Positions 4,173-56,952 of a DNA stretch of 64,000 bases are shown here, one piece after another. The notes beneath the pieces are model-generated. The model saw nothing but the letters and a program-made list of their open reading frames with translations, was not told the DNA's origin and ran no database searches. How positions within the stretch are numbered: the first letter of the stretch is position 1; each line of letters starts with the position of its first letter. Where the stretch lies: positions 488 to 64,487 of the forward strand of contig JAFGEQ010000011.1 of NCBI GenBank assembly GCA_016931515.1. Direction: 5' to 3'. A program made the position numbers and the translations under genes. The stretch comes from a candidate division CSSED10-310 bacterium (lineage in GTDB: Bacteria; CSSED10-310).

Positions 4173-5660
4173 ATGCCGCGATCACTGCGAATAGCTTTTA
4201 TTGCTTCAGAATGCGATCCATTCATCAAAACCGGAGGTTTGGCGGATGTCATTGGTTCATTGCCGGGAGCCCTTCGGAGACTGGGTCATGAACCTGTAAT
4301 CATAGTTCCGCGATATGCTGGATTAAACCTTGAAAGGTTCAGACTCCGTCGGGCATTCGACAAGCTGGGGGTCTGGATGGGTAACTGCCTGGAATGGTGT
4401 GCAGTGGATCAGACGGCGTTGGATGATATCCCGGCCTTTTTTATTGAGAGTAATAAGTTTTTTGACAGGAATGGTCTGTATCATGACGATACATTCCGGG
4501 ATTATCCCGATAATGCCTACCGATTCGGCTTCTTCTCACGTGCTGCTTTGCAGTTACTGATTGATCTCAGACAGAAAATTGATGTCATACACATTCATGA
4601 TTGGCAAACCAGTTCCTGTGCAGCCTATCAGAAGATATGGCATTGGAATAACGAGATTCTGGGTAATACTGCATCGGTTCTGACCATACATAATATCGCG
4701 TACCAGGGCGTCTACCCGGTGGACTGTTACGAGTATCTCGGATTTCAATGGGGCAATTTTACATCCCAAAAATTCGAGGATCATGGTCGCGTCAATCTCC
4801 TGAAAGGAGGCATTCATTACTCCGACAGGATTACAACCGTCAGTCAAAAACACGCGGACGAAGTTCGCACGCCGGAGTATGCCTACGGCATGGCACCGTA
4901 TCTCAATATCAAAGCGGAACGATTCAGCGGCATACTGAATGGGATCGATTATTCGATCTGGAACCCCGAAATTGATCCATTGATCCCTGCTGTCTATTCT
5001 CGATTTGATATGACAGGCAAGGCAACCTGCAAACGGAATCTTCAGGAACGAATGGGCCTGACAGTCGACGCAACGATTCCGCTTATTGGAGTAATCAGTC
5101 GGTTTGCTTCTCAAAAGGGACTGCATTTATTCGCCGCTGCAGTCTCTGAACTGATGAATGAGATGATATTCCAGTGCGTGATTTTGGGTTCTGGAGATCC
5201 ATATCTCGAGACTTTTTTTCGGGAGCTTCCTGCGCAATATCCCGGCCGGGTGGCATCGTTCATTGGATTCAATAACGAGCTGGCGCATTGGATCGAAGCC
5301 GGTTCGGACTGTTTTCTTATGCCGTCGCTGTATGAACCTTGTGGTTTAAACCAATTGTATTCATTGAAATACGGCGCATTGCCGATAGTCAGGGCGACCG
5401 GAGGACTTGATGATTCGATTGACCAGTATTGTGAGCGAACGGGATCAGGGACGGGATTCAAGTTTTTCGAGCCATCACCGAAGGCACTGAGTAACACGGT
5501 GGGGTGGGCGGTGAGTACCTGGTACGACCGTTCCGGGCATTTTCGGCAGATGCAGGCTGCAGCTATGGAGAAGGATTTTTCGTGGGATGTCAGCGCTGTA
5601 GCATATGAGGATGTTTATTTTCAGGCACTGAATGACAGAATGGGTTCATCCGGAGTTTGA
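4173..5660 (+). CDS. glgA: Glycogen (starch) synthase, ADP-glucose type (GT5)
   Basis: N-terminal RIAFIASECDPFIKTGGLADVIGSLP (KTGGL motif). 495 aa, consistent with GT5. GGGAGG RBS before the ATG. Confidence 0.9.
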   Translation: MPRSLRIAFIASECDPFIKTGGLADVIGSLPGALRRLGHEPVIIVPRYAGLNLERFRLRRAFDKLGVWMGNCLEWCAVDQTALDDIPAFFIESNKFFDRNGLYHDDTFRDYPDNAYRFGFFSRAALQLLIDLRQKIDVIHIHDWQTSSCAAYQKIWHWNNEILGNTASVLTIHNIAYQGVYPVDCYEYLGFQWGNFTSQKFEDHGRVNLLKGGIHYSDRITTVSQKHADEVRTPEYAYGMAPYLNIKAERFSGILNGIDYSIWNPEIDPLIPAVYSRFDMTGKATCKRNLQERMGLTVDATIPLIGVISRFASQKGLHLFAAAVSELMNEMIFQCVILGSGDPYLETFFRELPAQYPGRVASFIGFNNELAHWIEAGSDCFLMPSLYEPCGLNQLYSLKYGALPIVRATGGLDDSIDQYCERTGSGTGFKFFEPSPKALSNTVGWAVSTWYDRSGHFRQMQAAAMEKDFSWDVSAVAYEDVYFQALNDRMGSSGV

Positions 5661-5736
5661 ACACTGGAGATATCTTCTATATATTACGAGACTTGATAGT
5701 CCATGGACTTAGACAAACCGGGAGTATTCAGATAGC

Positions 5737-6849
5737 ATGTCAGTACCCAACTACCTGGAATTTGCAACTAGGATTTTTCACAAGCGGAATGCTCTGCCGC
5801 ATTATCTCGTTTTTTTTGTCACGAAAAACTGCACGGCTCATTGCAAGCATTGCTTGCTAGGTGATGGTCAGCAAAGCTCCAACGAGCTGACTCTCGAAGA
5901 GATCGAGATGATGACGAAACACATGGATCCCCTGCTGTTTCTACTCATCACAGGAGGTGATCCATTTCTAAGGAATGATATCGCGCAGATCGTGCAGATT
6001 TTCTATAAAAATCCTGGATTTCGTAATTTAGGGATCCCATCGAATGGTTTTCTGACCGATAGAATCGTCGAGCAGAGTGAACGCATTTTAAGGGAGTGTC
6101 CGGGGATCGAGTTTGCGGTGGACATCAGTATCGACGGGATTGGAGCAGACCATGACGAGATTCGTCAGAAACCGGGACTTTTTGAAAAAGCGGTTGCAAC
6201 ATATCGTGAATTGGAAAAACTGACGAAACGGTATCAAAATTTCAACCTGAATATCGCAGTAACTGTTTCACATTATAATCATGACAAGCTTGATGCCATT
6301 TATAATTATCTTCGTAATGAGCTGGACGTAAAAACGATTAATCATCTTTTATGCAGGGGCAATCCACGAGACAAAGAAGCCCTCGATGTTGACATGGAGA
6401 ATTACCGGCGATTCTCCGATCGTCTGGACGAGGATCTGACTCGGAGTGTGTTGAAGGGTTATCATGGATTTTTTGCCGCAGATCTCGTGAATGCGATGAA
6501 AACGATTCGGCAGCGATTAATTCGAAAAATCCGGGATGAGAATCGATTCATAGTGCCATGCTATGCAGCGAAACTGGGAGTTATTCTTTACCCGGATGGG
6601 AGTCTGGCACCTTGTGAGTTGAGGGATGAGATCATCGGAAATCTCCGTACAAATGGCTATAATTTCAGAGCTCTGATGGAATCGGAAGAGGCTCATCGGA
6701 TTCGTAATCGGATAAAAGAACAACGATGTTATTGTACCTATGAATGTTTCCTTACCAATGCCGTTATATTCAACCCTTTGCTGTTCAGTCAGGTACTGCT
6801 GGAAACTGCGCGTGTTAAACTGAGTCGACTTGTTTCGGGAGGCAGGTAG
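5737..6849 (+). CDS. Radical SAM enzyme with C-terminal Cys-rich SPASM/twitch-like domain
   Basis: CTAHCKHC (CxxxCxxC) near the N-terminus. C-terminal cysteines PCYAAKLGVILYPDGSLAPC...CYCTYEC. Stop codon TAG 6847-6849 is immediately followed by the ATG of the GT2 gene at 6850. Confidence 0.8.
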   Translation: MSVPNYLEFATRIFHKRNALPHYLVFFVTKNCTAHCKHCLLGDGQQSSNELTLEEIEMMTKHMDPLLFLLITGGDPFLRNDIAQIVQIFYKNPGFRNLGIPSNGFLTDRIVEQSERILRECPGIEFAVDISIDGIGADHDEIRQKPGLFEKAVATYRELEKLTKRYQNFNLNIAVTVSHYNHDKLDAIYNYLRNELDVKTINHLLCRGNPRDKEALDVDMENYRRFSDRLDEDLTRSVLKGYHGFFAADLVNAMKTIRQRLIRKIRDENRFIVPCYAAKLGVILYPDGSLAPCELRDEIIGNLRTNGYNFRALMESEEAHRIRNRIKEQRCYCTYECFLTNAVIFNPLLFSQVLLETARVKLSRLVSGGR

Positions 6850-7533
6850 ATGCATAAAGATAGAAAAATAACCGTCGTTATTCCATGTTACAACGAAGAG
6901 GGAGGTATCGCCAGAGTCATACCCAGTCTTCCTGAGTTTATCGATGAAATCATCGTGGTTGACAACAATTCTACAGATCGGACAGCTGAAGTTGCGAGTG
7001 CAATGGGAGCACGTGTTGTCTCGGAACCCCGTCAGGGATATGGATGCGCTTACAAGGCGGGCCTTCCTGCTGCGCAAGGTGATATTGTCGTGACGATGGA
7101 TGGTGATGGTACGTATCCCGCGCATGCCATCTCCTACCTTATCGATACACTGTTGATCGACGACCTGGATTTTGTATCGGCCGCCAGAATCCCCGTGCAG
7201 TGGGCGCATTGCCCCAACATGATCAAGCGATATTTCGGGAACATTGCTCTGAGCATCGTGACTTGCATGTTATTCGGTATTCGTCTGAGGGACAGTCAGA
7301 GCGGCATGTGGGTATTCCGACGCCAAATCCTGGATAAAATCCAGGTCTTGAGTGATGGGATGCCTTTTTCAGAAGAATTCAAGATCCGGGCTTTTCGTCA
7401 CGAATCGATTTTCGCCCGTGAGGTTCCGGTTCAGTTCAAGTATATTACACGCGTAGGCGCATCAAAATTAAACTTATGGAAAGATGGGTACCGTAACCTG
7501 CTGTATCTTTTCAAGTTGAGAAGGGAAATGTAG
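6850..7533 (+). CDS. GT2 glycosyltransferase of the polyprenyl-phosphate sugar synthase type (Dpm1/GtrB/ArnC-like), short form without C-terminal TM helices
   Basis: VVIPCYNEEGGI, VVDNNSTDRT, TMDGDGTY, DSQSGMWVFRRQIL (the DxQSGFR motif typical of Dpm1-like enzymes). 227 aa. Confidence 0.8.
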   Translation: MHKDRKITVVIPCYNEEGGIARVIPSLPEFIDEIIVVDNNSTDRTAEVASAMGARVVSEPRQGYGCAYKAGLPAAQGDIVVTMDGDGTYPAHAISYLIDTLLIDDLDFVSAARIPVQWAHCPNMIKRYFGNIALSIVTCMLFGIRLRDSQSGMWVFRRQILDKIQVLSDGMPFSEEFKIRAFRHESIFAREVPVQFKYITRVGASKLNLWKDGYRNLLYLFKLRREM

Positions 7534-7570: not shown

Positions 7571-8869
7571 ATGTTCAGGAGATTGAGTCTGTCGCGCGAT
7601 ACTCTGGCTTTGGTTCTTGCCGGTGGACGGGTGGATGAGTTGGCAGCATTAACGGTTCACCGTCCCAAGGCTGCCATGCCGTTCGGTGGTCTCTACCGTG
7701 TTATCGATTGCGTTCTGACGAATCTGGCGGCCAGTGGCATCAATCGGGTCGGCATTCTGAGCCAGTACAGGCCGCTGTCTCTGATGGATCATGTGCGGAA
7801 CGGCAAATATTGGGATCTCAGTGGCTATCGGAGAGGACTGAGTTTTTTACCCCCACATACAGGAGAAACCGATGCTGACTGGTATAAGGGTACAGCTGAC
7901 GCGTTGTATCAGAATTGTGCTTTTATCGAACATAACAGGCGAAATCTGACCCTGATAGTATCGGGTGACCACATTTACAGGATGGATTACCGCGGTCTGT
8001 TCGATCTCCACATGCAGAGTCAATCGGATCTGACGATTGCTGTCACGCCGGTGCCCGAGACCGAAACACAACGATTCGGGCAGGTCAAAGTGGGACTGGA
8101 CGGATTAGTGCAGGAGTATCTCGAGAAACCCGTGAAACCGATTTCCAACCTTGCATCGATGACGGTATATCTGTTTAACACCGATGTTCTCCTGTCGGAG
8201 TTACGGCAGAATGCCAAGACCGGAAAAACATTTCAGATTTATGATGAAATCCTGCCCGATCTGGTTAAAAGGGGCCGGGTCTCCGCTTTTATACATAACG
8301 GTTATTGGGCTTACAGCCGATCGCTGGAGGCATATTTCAGGGCGAATATGGATTGTCTCGGATCGAAACCGGTTGTCGATCTGGAGCAATGGGAACTCCA
8401 TACCAATCATGATATCGGACGGATAGGTGATCATCCGCCTTTGCAATCGGGCACAAAATCGGACATCAAGAATTCCATTGTCTCTCCGGGGTGTATTATC
8501 AAGGGGAAGGTTATCAATTCCATTCTTTCACCGATGGTCTTTGTTGATGAAGGATCAGAAATCGTTGATTCCGTTGTAATGGAAGGAGTGAGAGTTGGAA
8601 CCGGCAGCATCATCCATCGTGCTATGCTGGACAAGTATGTCTCGATAGGAAACAATGTCCGGCTGGGAAGAAAATTTACTCACTCAGAATCGGATTCTCA
8701 GACTATTCCGGGGTTATTGGAATGCGGCATCTCGGTTGTCGGGAAACGGGCAAAGATAGATGATGGCATGGTGATCGGTTGCAATGTTTTGATTTATCCT
8801 GATTCACAGCCAAAACATCAGCTTGGATTGAGAGTGCAGGATGGCACTACTGTTCATCTGGAGAAGTAG
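7571..8869 (+). CDS. Glucose-1-phosphate adenylyltransferase paralog with degenerate catalytic motifs (GlgD-like regulatory subunit)
   Basis: Full-length GlgC fold (nucleotidyltransferase plus C-terminal LbH). The N-terminal motif reads LAGGRVDEL instead of GGxGxRL. The Lys of the PxKSLASMG-like motif is Asn ([12 protein letters not shown]). GDHIY is retained. Confidence 0.75.
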
Positions 8870-8878
8870 AGGGATACC

Positions 8879-10165
8879 ATGAATTTACCACCGGTTTGCA
8901 TGATTTTGGCCGGCGGGCAGGGCTCCCGCCTCAACGCTCTTGCATGGCATCGGGCCAAACCAGCGGTACCCTTCGCCGGAATTTTCCGTCTGATCGATTT
9001 CACTCTTTCCAATTCATCTAACAGTGGGCTGATGAGAACGGGAATACTCACCCAATATCTGCCTCTTTCTTTGATGGATCATATTGGCACCGGTTCATCG
9101 TGGGATATGTCGGCGCGAACAAGGGATTGCAGAATCCTGCCTCCGACAGAAGGTGTGACAGCAAAAGACTGGTATCAGGGTACTGCACATGCCATTGCAA
9201 TGAACAGTGATTTTGTCTATCAGGGTAATGAGAAAGAGATTTTAATTTTATCCGGCGATCATATCTATCACATGGATTACCGGCCGATGATCCAGTTTCA
9301 TCGTGATAAAAAAGCTATATTTACGATTGCAACCATGCCGGTTGCTCCCGAAGAAGCTCACCGTTTTGGAATCGCCGTGACCGACTCAAATAATCGGATC
9401 CTTGAGTTTCAGGAAAAACCATCCTCCCCGAAAAGTACGACCGGTTCCATGGGAATTTATGTGGCCGACAGGGATGTTGTTCTTACACGGATGAAACACC
9501 TGATCTTGAAGGGGAAAACGGATATCGGTGCGCATCTGGTTCCGTCTCTGATTGGTGAAGGAAACGTATATGCATTTCCGTTCGACGGATACTGGAGAGA
9601 TGTCGGTACACTGGATTCATATTGGGAATGTTCGATGGATCTTCTGTCTCCGGAAACCAGTGGAGTGGATCTTGTCCGATGGAATATGAGAACCAACATG
9701 GAAGCATCGGGTCTGAGTCTCAGGGCTCCAAGCCGCTTCGGTGACTGCGCCCGTGTGACCGAGTCGATGATTGCACAGGGATGCAGAATCGATGGACGCG
9801 TCCATCGGTCCGTTTTATCTCCCGGCGTTAAAATTGGCGCCCGAGCGGAAGTTGTGGATTGCGTTATTTTCGATGACACAATCATAGGGGAGGGCGCTCA
9901 AATCTATCGGGCGATTATCGATAAAAATGTCTCAATCGGGTCGGGTGCACGTATCGGTCCGACAGGGAACGACGTGCGCAATCAATTGTTTCCCGATCAC
10001 CTGGGCTCCGGATTGACTCTGTTGGGAACTCGAAGTGTGGTACCTGCGGGTGCAAGCATTGCAGGTAATTGTCTCGTGTATCCGAATACCGTTCAATCAG
10101 ACTGGTCCCATGAGACATTGATGTCCGGTCAGACACTGCGTCCGGCAAAATTCGACAATGGCTAG
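8879..10165 (+). CDS. glgC: Glucose-1-phosphate adenylyltransferase (ADP-glucose pyrophosphorylase), catalytic subunit
   Basis: [43 protein letters not shown] all conserved. C-terminal LbH region present. Confidence 0.85.
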
Positions 10166-10173
10166 AGAAGCTG

Positions 10174-10629
10174 ATGACAATATTAGAACTCGAACAGTCG
10201 GATGAATGGGGATGGGAAATGCCGGAAGGTAAAAGCAATCATCCGACTCATCCGAACCAGGCTCCCTTCAAAGCAATGCAGAGATATCTGGATGTCGAGC
10301 GATTACCGGATAGTCTGGATGTTGTTCGCGAAGTCAGGAATCAAGCCGTAAAGAAGCTGGAAATGCTGGATCAGATGCATAGGGAGTTGATCGGCAAGGC
10401 CCGCAGTATTATCGAAAAAGCCAAAGAGGATCTGCGCCTGCACTCGGTTCGCATGCATGCGGCTAAAATTCGTAATCGGATTTATTATCTCTACTCCCGT
10501 GACAAGGGTAATGAGCAAGAGTTTTTTTCAATACTGGATCCGGATGAATACCATGCAGCTGATCCCAACTCTCGTTACATTGGAGCGTACAGACTTAATG
10601 AAGACAGCTCCTGGACTCGACTCGAATGA
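10174..10629 (+). CDS. Hypothetical cytoplasmic protein (151 aa)
   Basis: ORF follows glgC directly. No recognisable motifs. Its 3' end overlaps the start region of the next gene. Confidence 0.4.
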   Translation: MTILELEQSDEWGWEMPEGKSNHPTHPNQAPFKAMQRYLDVERLPDSLDVVREVRNQAVKKLEMLDQMHRELIGKARSIIEKAKEDLRLHSVRMHAAKIRNRIYYLYSRDKGNEQEFFSILDPDEYHAADPNSRYIGAYRLNEDSSWTRLE

Positions 10630-12727
10630 ATGGTCTCAGCGGAACGTAAGCGGATGGACTGACTCAACATCCGCGGGGGTTATTATTGCGGTACTCGTAA
10701 TAATCTATGTCACGTTCTTCAATCCCATACTGCGTTATGACGGGATCCAATACATGGCTCCGGCTCGTTCGCTGCTTATCGACGGGAATCTCAATACTTA
10801 TGATGAAGGTGTCTATTACACACAGCCAGGATGGTCGGATGTATCCAAGCGAAAAATCACTGGGCGACCACCACCCATCATCAGTTATGTTTCCGCACCG
10901 GATTATACTTCCCGGGGATATCGGTTTGTTGTTTTCCCAATTGGTAATCCGATAATCTGGTTGCCGCCACTGGGACTGTGCCACCTCGTTATCTCCGGTA
11001 TCCCCGCACTTCAAACTCTGTTTCCTGCTGACGGTTTTTCTCTCCCATACCGTCTCGGTCTGGGTTGGTGGAGTTTTCTTATAGGAGCAACGGGTCTTGT
11101 CATTGCTTATAAAATTCTCCGAATCTGGTACCGGCCTGTTGTGGCGTGTGTTTCATCCCTCTTTGTATTTACCTCCGGAAATATCATTCAATTCGTGACT
11201 CGAGATGTCACATTCTCCCACTGCATTGATTTTCTTCTTATCAACGCATCGATAATGATGTTCCTGAAGCTGGCAAATGACTCAGAACAGAACCGACAAC
11301 CCATCGAATCACATCTGTTCTGGGGAATTCTATCAGGATATACATTTATCGTACGCTATCAGGATGTAGTTCTGATCATTTTACCATTGTGGTATTACAT
11401 CTTCGAGCCCGATCGTCACAAAGGGAATCGATGGCGAAATCCCATTTTGTTTTTGACCGGATTGCTTTTCTCCACCGGACTCCAACTTTTCTACTGGAAA
11501 ATTCTCTACGGCTCGTGGTTGATTTCAAACCGTCTGATGGGTACGGGATGTTTAGCATCATTCCAGCCTTTAAAACCGCAACTTCTCGATATGTTATTCA
11601 GCCGTTTTCATGGTCTGTTCAATTGGATGCCCTGGATGCTGGTTCTAACAATTGCCTATCTGCTTTTCATTAAAAGAAACAAACGGTTTGGAATATTATT
11701 CCTGATTATTATGGTCATTCAAACCTACTATATTTCAAGTCGTTCTGAATGGTGGAATCTGGGTTTCTCAGTACGGCGTTATGCCGGGTGGAATCTTTTC
11801 TTCATGATCGGTGCAGCTGAAATATTCTCGCGATGTGGACGACCTGTCGAAAAAATTGCCTGCACAACCGTTGTTGTCCTGACGAGTTTCTGGTCATGGC
11901 TGTTCCAGATCTGTTACCATTCCATGAGTCGTTGCGGCCATATATATAAGCACTTAATTCGGGATTCCTCGCCGTATCATCCCGTAACGTACCACCCCAT
12001 TTTGCCGTCGCGGATAGATGTCATCAGAGCCATTGTTCATCTGAAGACATGGTTTGCGGAATACACACTATTTCCAGGTATCGTAGAATTTTTCAAAACC
12101 AATTACTCACTCGTTGCCATTGCACTCCTATCGTGCCATATCCTGTTCCTGATCGTTCTGAGTATCTGGATCCAATACCTGAAAAAGACAACTCTACCTC
12201 TCCGGAATTTACTGGCTGTCAGCCTCCTCTTTATCCTGATCGTTTCGGTGTGGATGATTCAATCGGATATTCATTCAAAGGATGTCATCGTACATCGGTT
12301 ATCTCAAAACAGACGTAATGACATACATCAGGTTGTCCGCATTCCGGTTGCGTCGGAATTTATGGGAGAAAACGTATTTCTTGATCTGAGTGACGAACCG
12401 ATAACATTCACTCGTCCGGATCCGGTCAACGCACAATGGGGATTTGCGCTTCTCGGTTCCACTATGGGGAATGATAAAGCGACGGTTGCCGTTCGATTAA
12501 AGCGGGATGGAGTGGTGTTCGATGAAAAAAGGTTCGGCATGAAAGCAGGTATAACACCGGACGTTGTGAGGATTGAAGTGCCATGGAAGGAAGTGTCGGA
12601 TGATCGTTATTGGTACGTGATGCGTTCCGAACCGACGGATGAAAGTGCTGTGCCCGACTCTTGGGACATTGTCCTCATAGAGGGAGAAAGTGTTCAATTG
12701 GGAGCTTTTTGGCATTACCTGGATTGA
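10598..12727 (+). CDS. Large polytopic membrane protein, GT-C fold glycosyltransferase-like (ArnT/PMT/COG1807-like)
   Basis: ORF 10457..12727. The probable start is MKTAPG at about 10598 (alternatively 10544), which gives a short cytoplasmic N-terminus, then TM1 (VIIAVLVIIYVTFF), then a periplasmic loop with acidic/aromatic residues (YDGIQYMAPARSLLIDGNLNTYDEG). More than 10 further TM helices and a C-terminal soluble domain. Confidence 0.55.
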   Translation: MKTAPGLDSNEWSQRNVSGWTDSTSAGVIIAVLVIIYVTFFNPILRYDGIQYMAPARSLLIDGNLNTYDEGVYYTQPGWSDVSKRKITGRPPPIISYVSAPDYTSRGYRFVVFPIGNPIIWLPPLGLCHLVISGIPALQTLFPADGFSLPYRLGLGWWSFLIGATGLVIAYKILRIWYRPVVACVSSLFVFTSGNIIQFVTRDVTFSHCIDFLLINASIMMFLKLANDSEQNRQPIESHLFWGILSGYTFIVRYQDVVLIILPLWYYIFEPDRHKGNRWRNPILFLTGLLFSTGLQLFYWKILYGSWLISNRLMGTGCLASFQPLKPQLLDMLFSRFHGLFNWMPWMLVLTIAYLLFIKRNKRFGILFLIIMVIQTYYISSRSEWWNLGFSVRRYAGWNLFFMIGAAEIFSRCGRPVEKIACTTVVVLTSFWSWLFQICYHSMSRCGHIYKHLIRDSSPYHPVTYHPILPSRIDVIRAIVHLKTWFAEYTLFPGIVEFFKTNYSLVAIALLSCHILFLIVLSIWIQYLKKTTLPLRNLLAVSLLFILIVSVWMIQSDIHSKDVIVHRLSQNRRNDIHQVVRIPVASEFMGENVFLDLSDEPITFTRPDPVNAQWGFALLGSTMGNDKATVAVRLKRDGVVFDEKRFGMKAGITPDVVRIEVPWKEVSDDRYWYVMRSEPTDESAVPDSWDIVLIEGESVQLGAFWHYLD

Positions 12728-40427: not shown

Positions 40428-43400
40428 TTACAGTTCGTATCCAAACGTGACGAAATCGATATCTCCGACGAGTTGAACATCGCTGCCAAGCATGCCTCCC
40501 CAGAAAATCAGATTGTCAGCAGAACCTTCGACGGCAGGCCATGTGAATGTCATGATATTCTTCCGAAGTGTTTCCTGGCCACCGAGAACGGCAATGTCCT
40601 CCCAATCCGCTGTCTGACTCCAGGAAGGAGCGAACCAGTACATGGAGTAGACATCGAGAATGACGAACAGGTCGATATCGTAAACCGGTGTTGAGGAAGC
40701 GTTCGTCAGTATCGCTTCAAGTGAGAACGCTTTACCTGCATTGAACATATCACCGGTGAGCATCATATTGACGCCAGTCTTCAGCGGCGTTTCTTCCGGA
40801 TATACTCCGGTTGACCGGTTATCAGCATGATATGTCGTCCAATAGAGCTGGTTCTGGTTTAATGTCGTGGAGAGATTGAAAACTGAGGTTGTTGTATCGG
40901 CAATTATGATCTCGGTATCACCATCATTATCTATGTCGGCAACGCATGGCGATGAAAACCCGCTTCCGGCCAGCATGATCGGTGAATTCGTCAAGACGGT
41001 GCCGTTCGAATGGTAGATATGCAACCATGCTTCGGTCTGGTTTCCGATTTCCGAACAGACGAGTATTTCGGGATAACCGTCGCTGTCGATATCGGCGATA
41101 GCCGGTGACGAGTTGATCACCGAGTTTGCGTTTGTTGAAACCTGGACGGGGAATCCGGTAACACCCGTACCGTCGGTATGAAAAGCGTAAATATAGGAAT
41201 CGATAGTGCAAATTACAATTTCCGGTATGGTATCCTGATCCAAGTCACCGATTGCTGGAGCTCCATAGATCGAGGCTGGAACGGTTACCGGCCAGCCGGG
41301 CAGCGGAGATGTCAGGATATCCGTAACCATAACGCCCTTCGGACCGATCTCGTTGGCATAGTCTCCGTACCCGTAGATGATTTCAGGCACACCGTCCGAA
41401 TCCAGGTCAGCCAGAGCCGGTACGGAGTAGACCTGGTTAGGTGCGGCTACCGGATATCCCGGTTGTATCTGTCCGGAGCCGTTGAAGAGATAAATAGCTC
41501 CTGAATCCAGAGGATCGATGTCATCCTTCGTGGCAATCAGGATTTCGCATTTTCCGTCATCATCGAAATCGAACGTCGATGCGCTGGCAAATACGTCGGT
41601 TCCGACATCCTGCGGCCAACCCGACAGAACATTGCCCATGCAGTCGAACACATAAACCTTGTTGTCATAATTCCCTGCAATAATTTCCAGCCTGTCGTCT
41701 CCGGCAACATCCGCGACACAAGGTGAACATTTGAATCCTGCCTGAACCGGATCCCCCGTCGAGAAGGGAATATCCGTCACAAACGGCCATGCTCCGCCGA
41801 AAGGAAGACCGTCATTGGTGAAGACATTGATTCTGCCGAGTACGCGTGATTTCGTTCCCTGGTTCGGATCGTTTGGATTGACCCACGCGACATTGTTCAA
41901 CTGGTCGGCAACAATAATCTCAACATCCCCGTCGCCGTCGATATCGGCAACAGCGGGAGCGGCAAGTATCAGATTGGAATCAAGATAGATCTGCGAAGCG
42001 ATTGATACCGGCCAGCCGTGATAATAGCCGCCGTTTCTATTAAACACACTGATCGTTCCATCATTGGATGCGGTAATGATTTCAGCAAACCCGTCGTTGT
42101 TGATGTCAGCGGCTCTGGCTGAGGCGTTGAAACCACCGAAGGACGGAACTGGGAACCACTGCATTTGCGGGAATGGATTATTGACCGAAAGATCGAAAGT
42201 CGCAGTCTCGGAATATCCACCGTCAGCAGTGATATCTACCTGGATCGGAATCGTCGTCCGGGACGACTCCGTAACAGTAAATATGAAGTCGGTCAGATTG
42301 GAACGGGTGACCTTGTTCTGGATGTCCGGGTATGACGCGCCGGCGCTCGATATTGTTACTCCGGACGAAGCGCTGATTGTCACGTTGACATTTGTGGCGT
42401 CCATCCATGAATGATTCTTCAACATGAGTTCCATGCTGACAGTCTCTCCAACATCGGCTTCAAAATTCGAATTGCCCGTCGAATCGTCGATCAGCCATTT
42501 CTCGATCCGGATGACCGGCGTTTCCGCGAGGCTGAGGAAATAATTAATCCGGCCCGGGTCCAGCAGTCCGCGATATGCCGGATTGCTGTAATCAATCGCA
42601 TCACAACCCTTCTGCATACGCTCGAGGATCTCGTCCGGAGTGAATGAAGGATTCTGACATTTGATCAGAGCAGCCAGCGCGGCTGCCATCGGGCTGGACA
42701 TTGATGTTCCACCCAGATTTCCATAATTGCCGCCGGGCAGCGTTGAACGGATTGAGACTCCCGGAGCGTACACATCGACATAGTCCTCACCGTAATTCGA
42801 CGAGCCGTCTTTTGAATCGAAACGGTTGGTATTCCCGACTCCGATGACACCTTCGTTGGCGGAAGGATAGTGCGGAGTTGAATCGCCAATGCCGTCATTA
42901 CCGCCGTTACCGGCTGCAGCCACGATTGTCACTCCGGCGGTATACGCATATTCCACCGCTTCTTCCTGAATCGCAAAATTAGACCCGCTGCCAAGACTGA
43001 GATTTGCAACGAGCGCTCCGTTATCGGCGGCATATCGAATCGCAGCTGCGACATTTCCAACCGCTGCCCCACCACCGCTGTCCGGGAAAACCTTCAGGAT
43101 CATGATCGGGCATCCCCATGTACCGCCTGCAACCCCGATTCCGTTGTTGGTAATTGCGCTGACGATACCCGACACATGTGTGCCGTGATCGTTGACCGCA
43201 TTGCCGTAATTGGGATTATTATCGTTTCCGTCGAAATCCCATCCTTGTGTATCATCGATATAAGTGTTGCCGTCATCATCGATCCCATTCCCTGGGATCT
43301 CGCCGGGATTGATCCATATGGCGGATGCCAGATCGGGATGGGTCAGATCCGTACCGCTGTCGATGATGGCTACCACAACGCTGGAATTGCCTTTAATCAC

Positions 43401-43817
43401 ATCCCAGGCAGCGGGTGCTTCCATGAGCGGTAAGGCAAACTGTTTGTTGAAGTCGGGATCGTTGGGTATCTCATCCATGTATACGTAATAATTCAACGAT
43501 GACGTTTCCACGGATGCAAGCGATTGAAGGGCATCCAGAAGCTGTTGGTCCGTTTTCCCGTTCGATGCCGTCACCACGAACCACCTGTCGAGGTCGCATG
43601 TTACGTCTGCATCTGGAGCTTGACAGAGTGTCTGCCACCCGGATACTCCGCATTTCTGCCATTCGTTCAAGACTGCCTGAAGCGGTTCGAGTCCGCCCAC
43701 GTCGGTCTCAATCAGAGCAGCCGGAGCCAGTTTCACAAGGACCTCACCTGGAACCCACTGCGCATGTGAAATCAGGGAAAATCCAGATAACAGTATCACA
43801 AACAACGCTTTTCTCAT
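40428..43817 (-). CDS. Secreted S8 (subtilisin-like) serine peptidase fused to an 8-bladed FG-GAP/VCBS repeat region
   Basis: Signal peptide MRKALFVILLSGFSLISHAQ (start about 43817, GGAGG RBS). Catalytic triad contexts AIIDSGTDLTHPDL, HGTHVSGIV, GTSMSSPMAAALAALI. Eight DxDxDGxxEI repeats (DINNDGFAEII ... DIDNDGDTEIII). Confidence 0.85.
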   Translation of the reverse strand: MRKALFVILLSGFSLISHAQWVPGEVLVKLAPAALIETDVGGLEPLQAVLNEWQKCGVSGWQTLCQAPDADVTCDLDRWFVVTASNGKTDQQLLDALQSLASVETSSLNYYVYMDEIPNDPDFNKQFALPLMEAPAAWDVIKGNSSVVVAIIDSGTDLTHPDLASAIWINPGEIPGNGIDDDGNTYIDDTQGWDFDGNDNNPNYGNAVNDHGTHVSGIVSAITNNGIGVAGGTWGCPIMILKVFPDSGGGAAVGNVAAAIRYAADNGALVANLSLGSGSNFAIQEEAVEYAYTAGVTIVAAAGNGGNDGIGDSTPHYPSANEGVIGVGNTNRFDSKDGSSNYGEDYVDVYAPGVSIRSTLPGGNYGNLGGTSMSSPMAAALAALIKCQNPSFTPDEILERMQKGCDAIDYSNPAYRGLLDPGRINYFLSLAETPVIRIEKWLIDDSTGNSNFEADVGETVSMELMLKNHSWMDATNVNVTISASSGVTISSAGASYPDIQNKVTRSNLTDFIFTVTESSRTTIPIQVDITADGGYSETATFDLSVNNPFPQMQWFPVPSFGGFNASARAADINNDGFAEIITASNDGTISVFNRNGGYYHGWPVSIASQIYLDSNLILAAPAVADIDGDGDVEIIVADQLNNVAWVNPNDPNQGTKSRVLGRINVFTNDGLPFGGAWPFVTDIPFSTGDPVQAGFKCSPCVADVAGDDRLEIIAGNYDNKVYVFDCMGNVLSGWPQDVGTDVFASASTFDFDDDGKCEILIATKDDIDPLDSGAIYLFNGSGQIQPGYPVAAPNQVYSVPALADLDSDGVPEIIYGYGDYANEIGPKGVMVTDILTSPLPGWPVTVPASIYGAPAIGDLDQDTIPEIVICTIDSYIYAFHTDGTGVTGFPVQVSTNANSVINSSPAIADIDSDGYPEILVCSEIGNQTEAWLHIYHSNGTVLTNSPIMLAGSGFSSPCVADIDNDGDTEIIIADTTTSVFNLSTTLNQNQLYWTTYHADNRSTGVYPEETPLKTGVNMMLTGDMFNAGKAFSLEAILTNASSTPVYDIDLFVILDVYSMYWFAPSWSQTADWEDIAVLGGQETLRKNIMTFTWPAVEGSADNLIFWGGMLGSDVQLVGDIDFVTFGYEL

Positions 43818-43934
43818 TTCATACCTCCACATTCAGATTGTAAGCGATGATCAGGTTTTCTCTTTTCATTCAAGTTATTTCGTATCACTTGAATCTCTTT
43901 ATCTCTCGACGGTCACACTGTCAACAATGCGGCA

Positions 43935-46041: not shown

Positions 46042-46802
46042 CAAAATACCTGACTCGGATTCCGCTGCAATGCCTGGATATTTTCTTTCCGGTTCCCTGC
46101 GAAAGCTGCGGAAATATCATGGACAGTTCAACAATGCCGGGTATTTTCTGCCCGGATTGCAGACGATTACTCCCGGAGTATCCGATGATCAATTGCGATC
46201 GCTGTGGAGCCCGGATACCGGATCCTGCCATGTCGACGAAGGACGGGTGTTATTGCTGCACAAACAGTCACTATCGGCTGGGAGGTATATTGACTCTCGG
46301 CCCGTATCATAAGGATGCGCGTCTCAGTCGAATGATTCTGTCCCTGAAGCACGGTGCCAAAACCTGGTATGCCCGTGAATTCGGATGGCGTCTGGCTCAG
46401 ACAGTAAAAAGAGAGTATCCCGATACAACCTTTAACGCCATCGTCGCCGTTCCTCTCCACAGATCCAGGCTCCGGCAGCGGGGTTACAACCAGGCGGATT
46501 TGATAGCGGGTGCCATGGCTGACAGCATGGGTATTCCATCCTATCGCTGGCTTCTCCGGCGGTTTCGCCGGACAAAACCCCAGTCAGGAGGCCGTGAGCT
46601 GAGACACAGCAATGTTTCAGGCGCTTTCGAAGCGGGTGGAATTTGCCGGAATGCAAAGATAATTCTCGTTGACGATGTTGTGACAACCGGCGCTACGACC
46701 GGCGAATGCGCAAGAGTGCTTTTTGAAGCTGGAGCGCAGGATGTTGTCGTTGCGGCCTGTGCATGGGTACCGGTTCTGCGAAATACCGGATCGTCACAGT
46801 GA
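46020..46802 (+). CDS. comF: ComF-family protein (double zinc ribbon plus phosphoribosyltransferase domain)
   Basis: N-terminal CxxC...CxxC, C-terminal PRTase motif ILVDDVVTTGATT. Confidence 0.65.
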   Translation: MQNLAILTKYLTRIPLQCLDIFFPVPCESCGNIMDSSTMPGIFCPDCRRLLPEYPMINCDRCGARIPDPAMSTKDGCYCCTNSHYRLGGILTLGPYHKDARLSRMILSLKHGAKTWYAREFGWRLAQTVKREYPDTTFNAIVAVPLHRSRLRQRGYNQADLIAGAMADSMGIPSYRWLLRRFRRTKPQSGGRELRHSNVSGAFEAGGICRNAKIILVDDVVTTGATTGECARVLFEAGAQDVVVAACAWVPVLRNTGSSQ

Positions 46803-46818
46803 ATATGGAGGTCAAATA

Positions 46819-49299
46819 ATGAATGTGCGCGAGCGAATCCGGGCGATTATCGCCGACAGGATTCTGATTGTGGATGGTGCAATCGGAACACTGCTGCAGA
46901 TGAGGGGTCTCGAACCTGGGATGCCTCCTGAAGTGTTGTTGCTGGATGCCCCGAAGGACGTGACTGACGTCCATCGGCTTTACGTCGAAGCCGGTGCTGA
47001 TATTATCACGACGAACAGTTTCGGAGCGTCTCGTTTGAAACTGGCTCAACATGGGCTGGAAGACCGGTTCGAACAGATCAATCGGCTATCGGTGGAAACG
47101 GCACGAAAAGCTGCAAATGGCCGGGCTCTTGTTGCCGGCAGCATCGGACCTACCGGTGAACTGCTTCAACCGATGGGATCCATTTCAATGATTGAACTCC
47201 AGGAAGAATTTCGGCGGCAGGCTCGGATACTGAAACAGGCAGGAGCAGACCTGGCAATCATTGAGACAATGGGTGATCTCGGCGAACTCCAGGCGGCTGC
47301 ACGCGCCTGTTACCTGGAACGATTTCCCTTCATGACATCGATGACATTCAATGAAGCCGGACGCTCGTTGTCAGGTTCCACACCGGAGAATCTCGCGATT
47401 ACAATGGCACCCTTCCATCCGCTGGCTATCGGTACAAATTGTGGCATGGGTCCGGCGGGAATGGTGCCGCGCATTCATGAACTCGTTTCTGTAACCGACT
47501 GCCCGATTCTCGCTCAACCCAATGCGGGTTTACCGGAATTGGTGGGTTCAACCACTGTTTTTCGCCTCCCGCCGGAACCTTTCGCCGAGCGCGCTGTCAA
47601 GTTGGCTGATGCAGGTGCCTCCATAATCGGAGGCTGCTGCGGTACAACTCCGGACCACATTCTCGCCCTTCGCAACTCATTGAAGGACCGGCGTCCGGCT
47701 CCTGCAGCCCATCGTTTCGGCGTTCGCTTTTCCGCCAGGTCGGGCATCGCCCTTGCCGGCGAAGGCGCACCTTTTTGCGTGATCGGCGAGCGGATCAATC
47801 CAACAGGCCGGAAAATTCTCAGCCGTCAACTGCGGACGGGCGATTTTTCCATGCTGCGTAAAGACGCGGGACTTCAGGTGGAGCGCGGTGCGTCACTCCT
47901 GGATGTCAACGTCGGCGTTCCGGATGCTGATGAGAGCGATTTGATGATCAGAGCGATTCATGAACTCCAATCCCTGATGCCTGCCGTCCCATTAAGTATT
48001 GATTCCAACGATCCTGACACATTGACTGCAGGACTTCACAACGTGGTCGGCATTGCACTTTTAAATTCCATCAACGGGGAACAATCACGGCTCGATAAAC
48101 TGCTTCCAATTGTTGCAGAAACCGGTGCCAACTTCATCGCCCTGGCGATGGATGAAACGGGTATGCCCGAGGATGCGGCGACCCGGATGAATATCATTCG
48201 CCGGATCATCGATTCCGCTGAAAAATTCGGAATTGCCCGAAATCGGATTCTTGTGGACTGCCTGGTATTTACTGTCGCATCACAACCTCAACAGGCCAAG
48301 GAAACGCTGGAAGCGATCCGCCGTGTGAAATCGGAGCTCGGTTGTGCTACGAGTCTTGGCGTCTCGAATGTCAGCTTCGGGCTGCCAGCAAGGGATTCGA
48401 TCTCCTCGACATTTCTTGCAATGGCGATAACCGCCGGGCTGGACGCCGGCATCATCAATCCATTGTCGGATCGTATGATGGAAACGCTTCGATCAACCGA
48501 ATTGTTGATGAACCGGGATAGTGGCGCACGGCAGTATCTTTCATTCATTGAAAAGAAAGAAAAACGAGACCGGGAGCATCAAAAAACAATGACTCCTGTT
48601 CGACAGGAGATAATTGAGAGTCCGGTTAAAACAGTAACCGAATCGAAAGCGGTGACGGATTCCGGACGGGAAATTCGCTGGAAAGTACTGGAAGGGGATC
48701 GGACCGGCATCGTTTCGGCTATCGATGACCAGTTGAGTTCCGGAAAATCACCCGATACCCTCCTGTCGGGTGTGCTGGTGCCGGCTATTCAGGATGTCGG
48801 AAGGCGATACGGGAATGGAGAAATATACCTGCCGCAGTTGATCCTTGCCGGAGAGACGATGAGGATCGGTGTTGAATATCTGCGGCCGATGCTGGCTCAC
48901 GGTGCCGGCGCTGGATTACATAATACGCCGCTCGTCATCGGCACGGTGGAGGGTGATATCCACGATATTGGGAAAAATATTGTGGCGATTGTGCTTGAGA
49001 ATCAAGGTTTTCGGATCATCGACCTGGGTAAAAACGTATCTGTGGAGACATTCGCGCGGGCAATCCGGGACAGTGACGCATCGGTTGTAGCGTTATCGGC
49101 ATTGATGACAACGACGATGCTGGCGATGGAGTCGACCGTGAAGATCTTGAAGGATCGCTGTCCCGGGGTCAAGATTATGGTCGGGGGTGCGGTTGTAACA
49201 CAATCATTTGCGGACAGAATCGGCGCGGACGGCTATGCAAAAGAGGCGGTCGGAGCCGGAAACATGGCGCGCAGGCTGGCAGGCCTGTCGTTGTTGTGA
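46819..49299 (+). CDS. metH: Cobalamin-dependent methionine synthase lacking the C-terminal AdoMet reactivation domain (Hcy S-methyltransferase plus pterin-binding plus B12-binding)
   Basis: GGCCGTTP (Hcy domain), pterin-binding barrel, B12 cap plus DxHxxG (GTVEGDIHDIGKNIV). 826 aa. Ends right after the B12 domain. Confidence 0.8.
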   Translation: MNVRERIRAIIADRILIVDGAIGTLLQMRGLEPGMPPEVLLLDAPKDVTDVHRLYVEAGADIITTNSFGASRLKLAQHGLEDRFEQINRLSVETARKAANGRALVAGSIGPTGELLQPMGSISMIELQEEFRRQARILKQAGADLAIIETMGDLGELQAAARACYLERFPFMTSMTFNEAGRSLSGSTPENLAITMAPFHPLAIGTNCGMGPAGMVPRIHELVSVTDCPILAQPNAGLPELVGSTTVFRLPPEPFAERAVKLADAGASIIGGCCGTTPDHILALRNSLKDRRPAPAAHRFGVRFSARSGIALAGEGAPFCVIGERINPTGRKILSRQLRTGDFSMLRKDAGLQVERGASLLDVNVGVPDADESDLMIRAIHELQSLMPAVPLSIDSNDPDTLTAGLHNVVGIALLNSINGEQSRLDKLLPIVAETGANFIALAMDETGMPEDAATRMNIIRRIIDSAEKFGIARNRILVDCLVFTVASQPQQAKETLEAIRRVKSELGCATSLGVSNVSFGLPARDSISSTFLAMAITAGLDAGIINPLSDRMMETLRSTELLMNRDSGARQYLSFIEKKEKRDREHQKTMTPVRQEIIESPVKTVTESKAVTDSGREIRWKVLEGDRTGIVSAIDDQLSSGKSPDTLLSGVLVPAIQDVGRRYGNGEIYLPQLILAGETMRIGVEYLRPMLAHGAGAGLHNTPLVIGTVEGDIHDIGKNIVAIVLENQGFRIIDLGKNVSVETFARAIRDSDASVVALSALMTTTMLAMESTVKILKDRCPGVKIMVGGAVVTQSFADRIGADGYAKEAVGAGNMARRLAGLSLL

Positions 49300-55593: not shown

Positions 55594-55638
55594 TGATGCG
55601 TTTGATGGGGAACTGAATAGTTCCTGAGACATAGATCT

Positions 55639-55722
<84 letters not shown>

Positions 55723-55730
55723 TATTGAAT

Positions 55731-55812: not shown

Positions 55813-56871
55813 ATGGAAACACATCGCCAAATAAACAATAAAACAGACAATCGGATTGATGAGTCAACCCGTTTATTGCAACTTGCCGAAGCATGCCCGG
55901 ATAAAGATCAAGCGAAAAAATCGATCTTTCCTGTGTTCCTCTCCGGCTATGCCTGCTCGGGGCGATGCATCTATTGCAATGCCGCCCTGTCCAGCGGATA
56001 CGGGGCACCGCCTGATTTCCAGGCGCTGGACCGGGATTTGACCGACTGGCTGGAAAAACCGGACCGGCGGAGCGACATGGAAATCGCCTGGTACGGTAAT
56101 GACCTGCCCGATGTTCCCGAAACGGTCATTAAAGAACTCCTCGCCCTCTGCTCAAGAAGGGCATTCAACGAGACGATTCCTGGACTCCGTCTGTCGATTC
56201 GCCCGGATTCGGTTCTCAAGACTCCGGTCAAACTGCTTTGCGCCTTCTCGGTAGTGGAGCTTGGCGTGCCGTCGATGGATCCGGATATACTCAAATTGAT
56301 CCGTCGTGGACATGAACCGAACGCTGTGAATGACGCCTTGATACTGCTTCGCAGCCTCGGGATCCGAACCGGGTTCCAGACGATGGTCGGGTTACCGGGT
56401 GCCAATGCCGCATCGGATCACCGAACTGCCGAACTCCTGGCAGCGCTTAGCCCGGATTTCGTGCGAATTCATCCAACACTTGTTTTGCACGGTACGGTGC
56501 TGGCGGAGATGGCTGATGCCGGCGAATACCGGCCACTGGATCTGGAGGACGCCATCGAACGATGCGCAGATATCTGGGACATCTACGCTCGCAGGGAAAT
56601 TCCGGTCACGCGTTGTGGATTTCATTTGCCGGAGACGGAACGCGATCGTGCGCTGCACTCCGGGCCGTGGCATCCCGCATTCGGCCAGCTCGTGCGCTCC
56701 CGGCGGTGGCGCCGGCTGCTGGATAAGCAGTTGTCGGCTCAGCCCGATCAACTTGTGTTGACGGTGCCTCCCGATGATTTTTCCGATGCCGTCGGGCATA
56801 AAAAGGAGAATCTGCGATGGTTGCAGGAGAAGCATGGAGTGGGAGTGGCGGTATTGAAAGTTGAAAGTTGA
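55813..56871 (+). CDS. Radical SAM protein (ELP3/HemN-like, TIGR01212-like architecture)
   Basis: CSGRCIYC (CxxxCxxC), ELGVPSMDPDILKLIRRGH. GC-rich, 352 aa. Confidence 0.7.
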   Translation: METHRQINNKTDNRIDESTRLLQLAEACPDKDQAKKSIFPVFLSGYACSGRCIYCNAALSSGYGAPPDFQALDRDLTDWLEKPDRRSDMEIAWYGNDLPDVPETVIKELLALCSRRAFNETIPGLRLSIRPDSVLKTPVKLLCAFSVVELGVPSMDPDILKLIRRGHEPNAVNDALILLRSLGIRTGFQTMVGLPGANAASDHRTAELLAALSPDFVRIHPTLVLHGTVLAEMADAGEYRPLDLEDAIERCADIWDIYARREIPVTRCGFHLPETERDRALHSGPWHPAFGQLVRSRRWRRLLDKQLSAQPDQLVLTVPPDDFSDAVGHKKENLRWLQEKHGVGVAVLKVES

Positions 56872-56952
56872 ACGATAAAAGTTGAAAATTTTGGGGAGAG
56901 CTCCTCTTCCTTTCAATTTTCAATTTTCAATTTTCAATTTTCAATTCTCAAT
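56854..56952. repeat. Inverted arrays of heptanucleotide microsatellites forming a long imperfect hairpin between convergent genes
   Basis: (TTGAAAG)x3 plus a TTGAAAA at 56854-56888, facing TTTCAAT x5 plus TCTCAAT at 56911-56952, around a GGGGAGAGCTCCTCTTCC core. The left array overlaps the last codons of the radical SAM gene and the right array overlaps the last codons of the GT-C gene. Confidence 0.6.

Follow-up and report, generated by a model that had tools for sequence, protein, structure and literature searches.

A widespread radical SAM family paired with Dpm1-like glycosyltransferases, and its possible role in remodelling sugars on carrier lipids

Within a 64,000-nt stretch of contig JAFGEQ010000011.1 from a candidate division CSSED10-310 bacterium (the window), a gene for a radical S-adenosylmethionine (SAM) protein, here called rSAM, is directly followed by a gene for a family 2 glycosyltransferase (GT2) that resembles Dpm1. 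The association between the two was seen in >12 phyla, and natural fusions of the two proteins also occur. The best reading of this linkage is that the rSAM works as a functional unit with GT2s of lipid-carrier glycosylation pathways and would not act on a peptide substrate; since it lies beside, or is fused to, lipid-carrier glycosyltransferases in so many phyla, what it modifies is most likely a sugar and not a peptide. We propose that the partner GT2 makes a glycan linked to polyprenyl phosphate (or to another lipid) and that the rSAM remodels the sugar of this glycan, and give this proposal an even chance of being right. On this comparative evidence, the most fitting description of the protein is that of a twitch rSAM directed at sugars or lipid-linked sugars, with a new tie to carrier-lipid glycosylation. 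To our knowledge, carbohydrate-acting radical SAM enzymes come almost only from antibiotic pathways, and calditol synthase (Cds) and the hopanoid enzyme HpnJ are the two rSAMs proposed for lipid-linked sugars, both mechanistically untested. If true, the proposal would mean that envelope glycosylation in bacteria includes a chemical step not known before, and would open radical chemistry on lipid-linked sugars to study in a tractable system. The GT2 partners, which are conserved and in some cases fused to the rSAM, suggest a definite substrate, namely the product of the adjoining GT2. Confirmation would also help to annotate thousands of "radical SAM protein" / "glycosyltransferase family 2" pairs in uncultured phyla. 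The rSAM family comprises at least 150 clusters (50% identity) above 300 bits.

Conservation of the rSAM-GT2 pair

A pattern-limited scan of 185,579 species genomes gave 290 with a relative of the rSAM, from which the best 80 loci were kept. These loci came from CSSED10-310, Coatesbacteria, Schekmanbacteria, Chloroflexota (many of them Anaerolineae), Acidobacteriota, Desulfobacterota/Deltaproteobacteria, Myxococcota, Eisenbacteria, PVC-group lineages, Sumerlaeota, Gemmatimonadota, Binatia and others. Neighbours were counted over 83 non-redundant loci, the nearest gene of at least 150 aa on either side being scored when it encoded a same-strand GT2; genes were called as longest open reading frames (ORFs) and labelled by phmmer against a handful of reference proteins, and the counts are thus approximate. 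Such a GT2 was encoded by the gene immediately downstream of the rSAM in 52/80 loci (65%) and by the gene immediately upstream in 37/78. It was present at either side in 60/83 loci, at both sides in 29 loci, and no more than three genes away in 67/83, against a background of 3/318 genes (~1%) at a distance of six or more genes from the rSAM. Association with GT2 extended over most of a neighbour-joining tree of the rSAM family.

The downstream GT2 is of the short, Dpm1-like type (225–300 aa, hereafter GT2s), and its start was located between -35 and +12 nt from the rSAM stop codon in 28 of the 48 loci with a downstream GT2, the 0-nt junction of the window being repeated in the three closest orthologous loci (L010-L012). 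The upstream GT2 (GT2L) has a length of ~330–360 aa and C-terminal hydrophobic helices, and resembles MftF, AglG and EpsD-type enzymes. In the CSSED10-310 loci the invariant unit was rSAM-GT2s, preceded either by glgA (the window and L010-L012) or by a block of GT2L, two B12-binding radical SAM proteins (B12-rSAMs) and a sulfatase-like protein. Recurrent neighbours over the whole set included GT-C-type membrane proteins (PMT_2, YfhO, PF10131 and TMEM260_N), as well as polysaccharide deacetylases, short-chain dehydrogenase/reductase (SDR) epimerases/dehydratases, methyltransferases, and phosphodiesterase and sulfatase-superfamily proteins.

Fusion proteins were sought among representatives of the best 150 clusters of the family, at the thresholds given above, from a library of 1.84 billion proteins; the fusions found are metagenome gene predictions. 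Eleven of the 150 representatives were at least 520 aa in length, and all ten long representatives scanned contained both PF00535 and PF04055. The GT2 domain was N-terminal in nine of these ten, mostly with two or three transmembrane helices (predicted, as elsewhere in this study, with a simple hydropathy window) between the domains, and C-terminal in the remaining one (rSAM-GT2), and these two orders mirror the gene order GT2L-rSAM-GT2s. The long rSAM ORFs in L068, L080 and L089 were not counted as fusions, as their N-terminal extensions match no query domain. Fusions in both orders, together with the synteny, are the strongest evidence for a pathway intermediate that the rSAM and GT2s would share. 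The tight coupling of the two proteins, which the initial annotation had read from the abutting genes of the window, was thus upheld both by gene order across phyla and by gene fusion, and the co-occurrence statistics agree with it.

Motifs, family and fold of the radical SAM protein

The rSAM is a member of the SPASM/twitch subgroup of the radical SAM superfamily, with a CX3CX2C site and a GGE/D-P SAM motif. The earlier description as a SPASM/twitch enzyme held for the CX3CX2C site, for the C-terminal hairpin motif and, marginally, for PF13186 (22.7 bits versus a cut-off of 21.5, over residues 275–334, when the C-terminal fragment was scanned alone), but not for a full SPASM motif or for TIGR04085, which gave no match to the rSAM; a full-length Pfam scan at E<=1e-3 did not list PF13186. 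All eight Cys residues were invariant in an alignment of 54 rSAM sequences. The radical SAM triad C32, C36 and C39 was also invariant in the 150 family representatives, while C275, C293, C331 and C333 had no substitutions among the 145–148 representatives aligned at these positions and C337 was substituted in 12. The full SPASM pattern consists of seven to eight Cys (CX9-15GX4C, gap, CX2CX5CX3C, gap, C) and is not matched by the rSAM, which has five C-terminal Cys. Four fixed Cys ligands are consistent with one auxiliary cluster in a twitch-like domain instead of a full seven-Cys SPASM domain, and the protein most likely carries a single twitch-type cluster beside its predicted radical-SAM [4Fe-4S] site. 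The hairpin aligns with the twitch hairpin of SkfB. The core of the protein begins at about residue 20, Pfam matches were limited to PF04055, Fer4_12 and SPASM, and a conserved hydrophobic helix (residues 337–355) follows the last Cys.

An identical protein is recorded from a CSSED10-310 metagenome-assembled genome, and 239 homologues were found; the rSAM represents an uncharacterised, widely distributed family that no curated model or close solved structure covers. Among the best 25 of 46 NCBIfam matches, no model came near its own cut-off, the top match being NirJ1 with 70 versus 650 bits. The AlphaFold2 (AF2) model of the rSAM (pLDDT 90.9, pTM 0.90) matched SkfB, anSMEcpe, CteB, DesII, MoaA, SuiB and viperin with template modelling (TM) scores of ~0.5–0.57 and 12–20% identity, the best solved folds being SkfB and the anaerobic sulfatase-maturating enzyme (anSME) at ~0.55. 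Sequence and profile searches of the PDB gave SkfB, MoaA and BlsE, with the twitch domain of BtrN only marginal. A full-text literature search found no paper on the rSAM family or on its glycosyltransferase neighbourhoods, and nothing comparable is listed in a 2026 review of lipid-modifying rSAM enzymes (PMC13459092).

Two assignments suggested by individual matches were rejected. A tetrapyrrole rSAM of the NirJ/AhbC/AhbD type gave the top NCBIfam matches, at 58–70 bits versus cut-offs of 500–650, and the scanned ORFs of the window did not include any gene for haem d1 or the alternative haem pathway. For an anti-phage, viperin-like system, PADLOC returned a generic 39-bit pVip match for the rSAM and nothing for its neighbours.

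The partner glycosyltransferase and a GT-C-fold membrane protein

The GT2 of the window is a candidate polyprenyl-phosphate hexosyltransferase by sequence comparison. The earlier Dpm1-like label was supported by its PF00535 domain and by the alignment of residues 4–223 to residues 22–246 of the dolichol-phosphate mannose synthase (DPMS) of P. furiosus (5mlz, E 3e-11), which spans the whole catalytic domain with the helices on its acceptor side. The DXD motif is conserved (DGD, opposite DAD of PfDPMS), and a D..SG loop is common to both. No transmembrane segment was predicted in the GT2; human DPM1 likewise lacks a transmembrane helix. The closest NCBIfam models were the haloarchaeal dolichol-phosphate hexose transferase (108 bits), AglJ (104 bits) and mycobacterial PpgS (82 bits), all below cut-off, and even the best fell short at equivalog level (375 bits needed). 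The GT2 is better conserved than the rSAM, with 55–60% identity across phyla.

Orthologues of the GT2 were also found without an rSAM. One of these (L090) lies in the order Wzx, GT2, a small EamA-like protein and a 910-aa membrane protein, an arrangement resembling that of GtrB and its partners. In an unrelated genome (L092, 5638-7705), a GlgC-like NTP transferase gene is located directly upstream of a GT2s orthologue; its product has 39–40% identity to both GlgC paralogues of the window, and neither glgA nor an rSAM is found close by. The donor of the GT2s family may thus come from GlgC-like enzymes, though this is a hint only.

The last gene of the operon encodes a 709-aa membrane protein, which probably starts at 10598, corresponding to M48 of ORF 10457-12727 and to the start of the identical NCBI protein P0391; its 5' end is overlapped by the preceding DUF2452 gene. 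Members of its family were found only in CSSED10-310, and the family lacks a Pfam domain. The AF2 model (pLDDT 83.3, pTM 0.87) ends in a C-terminal beta-sandwich, and the top 21 PDB matches returned by Foldseek were all GT-C enzymes (EmbA/B/C, STT3, ALG3, AglB, PglB, ArnT, Pmt1 and AftA/B), so that the modelled structure points to an unannotated GT-C family. A profile of the protein gave no match to PDB sequences, and profile-profile comparison with the PMT_2-type neighbours of related loci was weak (probability 11%). GT-C enzymes use polyprenyl-phosphate-linked donors, and with a Dpm1-like GT2 and a GT-C fold, the operon thus has one candidate enzyme for making a polyprenyl-phosphate sugar and another for using it.

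Proposed pathway and comparison with known systems

In the mechanism we propose, the Dpm1-like GT2 would transfer a hexose to polyprenyl phosphate on the cytoplasmic side of the membrane, where the rSAM could be held via its hydrophobic C-terminal helix or via its GT2 partner. Cleavage of SAM would give a 5'-deoxyadenosyl radical, which would abstract hydrogen from a sugar carbon of the lipid-linked product and lead to a non-standard sugar by oxidation to a keto-sugar, epimerisation, decarboxylation or ring contraction. The auxiliary cluster may act as an electron conduit, as proposed for BtrN or anSME. After flipping, a GT-C transferase such as the 709-aa protein would move the modified sugar onto an envelope polymer or protein. 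More tentatively, the rSAM-GT2 pair, often present as a GT2-rSAM-GT2 triad, may represent an unrecognised and widespread pathway, mostly of anaerobes, in which a sugar is remodelled on its polyprenyl-phosphate carrier and becomes an unusual donor for GT-C transferases that decorate the cell envelope. By analogy, the chemistry in such a pathway could be a radical epimerisation or oxidation, which would parallel DprE1/E2 without a need for oxygen, or a contraction of the ring that yields a carbasugar, as proposed for Cds and HpnJ.

The modification of a sugar while on its carrier has precedents in ArnD and DprE1/E2. The window resembles the GtrA/B/C, ArnC/D/E/F/T, GacI-L plus GacH, and PpgS plus DprE1/E2 plus Emb/Aft systems in combining a Dpm1/GtrB-like GT2 with a GT-C protein, and related loci share with these carrier systems a membrane enzyme of the alkaline-phosphatase superfamily and, in several cases, a polysaccharide deacetylase. 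Those systems differ in that they are not known to include a radical SAM enzyme, which here is the conserved partner of the GT2.

Sugar-directed twitch enzymes have precedents in BtrN and BlsE (PMC13459092 and general knowledge), which share with the rSAM the CX3CX2C site, a Cys motif in a C-terminal hairpin that would bind one auxiliary cluster, a similar size and a carbohydrate context. However, similarity to both is very weak (E 1e-6 and limited to the core for BlsE, E 0.0075 for the twitch domain of BtrN), both act on soluble antibiotic intermediates, and both lack the CxCx3C motif and are not known to be linked or fused to GT2 or GT-C proteins. In logic, the proposed pathway may be compared with that of Cds and HpnJ, which are proposed to remodel (ring-contract) a lipid-linked hexose by radical chemistry after a glycosyltransferase has put the sugar on the lipid (PMC13459092). 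Unlike the rSAM, HpnJ has a B12-binding domain, and its model TIGR03471 was absent among the best 25 of the 46 NCBIfam matches. The lipid would also differ, here probably being a polyprenyl-phosphate carrier and not a glycerol dialkyl glycerol tetraether (GDGT) or hopanoid as for Cds and HpnJ. It is the B12-rSAM neighbours in related loci that match the HpnJ model, at 198 bits versus a cut-off of 577; their best matches are of the BchE, HpnJ and ladderane-lipid type, all below cut-off.

Anaerobic sulfatase-maturating enzyme, SkfB, CteB and SuiB gave the best structure matches (E 1e-13 to 1e-10), and share the CX9-15GX4C hairpin with the rSAM, which itself matches Pfam SPASM marginally. They differ from the rSAM in that the TM score is ~0.55 at 16–20% identity, that the rSAM has four to five auxiliary Cys and not seven to eight, and that it comes without a peptide client or one with a formylglycine motif, and without a RiPP (ribosomally synthesised and post-translationally modified peptide) recognition element (RRE) domain.

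Alternative explanations

Several observations weigh against the remodelling of a lipid-linked sugar by the rSAM. The data do not tell the two kinds of possible substrate, lipid-linked and nucleotide sugars, apart, and the closest solved folds (SkfB, anSME and CteB) modify peptides or proteins, though with TM scores of only ~0.55. The GT2 does not reach the cut-off of any equivalog model in NCBIfam, so that polyprenyl phosphate is a candidate acceptor only, and the pair in the window sits within glycogen genes (glgA, glgC and a glgD-like gene), which is another possible context. The association itself is also incomplete: ~20% of loci are without a GT2 within three genes, and the neighbour-joining tree contains a five-locus subclade in clusters of GT4, deacetylase and WbpB-D-like genes, and a subclade of six loci in which the upstream partner is a B12-rSAM alone.

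The rSAM might instead modify a nucleotide-sugar donor, with the altered NDP-sugar then passing to the adjacent or fused GT2, which we regard as unlikely though worth weighing. DesII and viperin act on TDP-sugars or NTPs, and these nucleotide-binding rSAMs, together with MoaA, are among the structural matches, next to the weak match to pVip; GT2 fusion would also favour donor channelling, and NDP-sugar genes (GlgC-like, SDR epimerase/dehydratase) are frequent nearby. However, the structural likeness is generic to the rSAM core (TM 0.5–0.56 on the query), most fusions place the rSAM after two to three predicted membrane helices and hence at the membrane and not in the free cytosol, and the two different GT2s flanking the rSAM in 29 loci fit a step between two transfers better. 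A modification of the lipid itself, whether the polyprenyl carrier or another membrane lipid glycosylated by the GT2, as for Tes, GrsA/B or HpnH, seems improbable to us. It would suit the hydrophobic helix at the C-terminus, the weak profile match to GDGT-MAS, and the HpnJ/BchE/ladderane-like B12-rSAMs, acyl-CoA ligase and CDP-alcohol phosphatidyltransferase carried by related loci, but these lipid genes are accessory, being found neither in the window nor in most loci, the invariant partners are glycosyltransferases, and there was no specific similarity to Tes, Grs or HpnH models. As the pair is located between glgA and glgC genes in this genome, a role in glycogen metabolism, such as the making of a primer or a modified alpha-glucan, was also weighed and appears very improbable. 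The order glgA-rSAM-GT2-glgC-glgC is present in the window and in L010-L012, rSAM-GT2s-glgC-glgC is found in eight CSSED10-310 loci, and the GlgC-like gene of L092 again stands beside a GT2s orthologue in an unrelated locus. Against this, the glg linkage occurs in one phylum and is absent from all others, sister lineages have the upstream glg genes replaced by the GT2L-B12-B12-sulfatase block, and the GT2 resembles lipid-phosphate transferases and not glucan synthases.

A peptide or protein maturase is what the best solved relatives (SkfB, anSMEcpe, CteB and SuiB) would suggest. Such a maturase might belong to a RiPP system, generate formylglycine as anSME does, or modify either the glycosyltransferase or the protein that accepts the sugar, and yet we consider it quite improbable given its missing clients and too few auxiliary Cys. 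ORFs of 18–110 aa within 2.5 kb of the rSAM were clustered over the 83 loci, and no conserved small-ORF family was found beside the rSAM in these loci, barring fragments of a thioredoxin-like lipoprotein and artefacts from overlapping frames. This agrees with the initial annotation, which had noted the absence of a precursor-peptide ORF; the gap upstream of the rSAM in the window does not contain one either. The CX3CX2C site starts at residue 32, which leaves no room for an N-terminal RRE/PqqD domain, and a RiPP maturase was rejected on both grounds. The anSME question arose from the loci of closer relatives, where the gene immediately preceding the rSAM belongs to PF00884: such a 'sulfatase' is present in ~12 related loci, and the proteins score as arylsulfatase-like. 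The motif [CS]-x-[PA]-x-R was, however, without a match in 11/15 adjacent PF00884 proteins, and lay outside the nucleophile site in the others. In the PF00884 protein of L005 the nucleophile site reads PMTTPSHAS, so that Thr stands where a formylglycine enzyme has Cys or Ser, and three hydrophobic helices are present at the N-terminus. By analogy, these neighbours resemble membrane-anchored transferases of the alkaline-phosphatase superfamily with a Thr nucleophile (LtaS, EptA and GacH type), and may be such enzymes. The anSME model TIGR03942 was absent among the best 25 of the 46 NCBIfam matches to the rSAM, no RiPP model there came near its cut-off, and a sulfatase search of the window found none. 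An anSME with a cognate sulfatase, which had been named as a possible refutation of a sugar-directed role, was therefore rejected.

Organisation of the operon

The genes from glgA to the 709-aa membrane protein are all on the plus strand, with intergenic gaps of no more than 76 nt (Table 1), and no terminator was found in a scan between 5308 and 8270 (glgA to glgC). The reported abutment of the TAG stop and ATG start of the rSAM and GT2 genes was read in the sequence, and makes stoichiometric co-expression of the two proteins plausible. The gap after glgA, previously given as 77 bp, measured 76 nt (5661-5736) and contained no complete ORF of at least 20 aa; two small ORFs, 5632-5712 (+) and 5684-5767 (-), reach into it, and both overlap the flanking genes. 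One weak promoter-like site was found at 5657-5685, with site counts not clearly above those of shuffled sequences. Recent horizontal insertion into the glg operon was rejected, as no compositional break was seen and the GC content is 0.44–0.52 throughout. An antisense ORF of 230 aa (6517-7209, minus strand) crosses the rSAM/GT2 junction opposite the two conserved genes and is most likely spurious.

Table 1. Features of the apparent rSAM-GT2 operon in the window
Feature	Position	Strand	Remarks
glgA, glycogen synthase	4173-5660	+	TIGR02095 520.8 bits vs cut-off 328; upstream of rSAM
rSAM gene	5737-6849	+	370 aa; PF04055 E 2.8e-11
Radical SAM [4Fe-4S] site, C32-X3-C36-X2-C39	5830-5853	+	Read from translation
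Twitch/abridged-SPASM region, C275-X12-G288-X4-C293 ... C331-X-C333-X3-C337	6559-6747	+	PF13186, residues 275-334
GGGAGG, Shine-Dalgarno-like site for GT2	6837-6842	+	Within 3' end of rSAM; 7 nt to ATG
TAG-ATG junction, rSAM stop (6847-6849) / GT2 start (6850)	6847-6852	+	0 nt between
GT2 gene (GT2s, Dpm1-like)	6850-7533	+	227 aa; PF00535 E 3e-24
GlgC paralogue, GlgD-like	7571-8869	+	Without GxGxRL loop
GlgC-like glucose-1-phosphate adenylyltransferase	8879-10165	+	NF003670 395 bits vs cut-off 470; PF00483
DUF2452 protein	10174-10629	+	PF10504 E 4e-23
709-aa polytopic membrane protein, GT-C fold	10598-12727	+	AF2 model and Foldseek

The two GlgC paralogues have 38% mutual identity, and both are below the NCBIfam cut-offs for GlgC and GlgD. 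The nucleotide loop reads GGQGSRL in the second paralogue and GGRVDEL in the first, which suggests a catalytic GlgC with a GlgD-like regulatory subunit.

Additional observations in related loci and in the window

GT2L, two B12-binding rSAMs and a membrane-anchored 'sulfatase' are encoded directly upstream of rSAM-GT2 in L005 (2336-7898), L006, L008, L009, L014 and L016; none of these (sulfatase, B12-rSAM or GT2L) is encoded in the window. Five loci, L004 (3622-4749), L030, L050, L053 and L083, have a paralogous rSAM/SPASM protein in addition to the family member, with the PTO1314 family as its best match (below cut-off). In the Anaerolineae loci L028, L033 (~11900-12250), L046, L059 and L076, split small ORFs just downstream of the rSAM correspond, by alignment, to pieces of a lipoprotein, the C-terminal part of which looks thioredoxin-like, and a separate neighbour family of 298 aa (such as L034, 5445-6341) has a weak Redoxin match.

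Elsewhere in the window, three minus-strand ORFs (51937-54486, 56948-58528 and 58521-60143; 849, 526 and 540 aa, respectively) had no Pfam match at E<=1e-5. A MetH-like protein of 858 aa (46723-49299) has homocysteine S-methyltransferase, pterin-binding and B12-binding domains, with no match to the C-terminal activation domain, and a 1134-aa subtilase (Peptidase_S8) with FG-GAP repeats is encoded on the minus strand at 40428-43832. A tRNA-Leu(GAG) gene (55638-55723) is followed by a second, unrelated radical SAM gene (55813-56871) with PF04055 and Radical_SAM_C (PF16199) domains.

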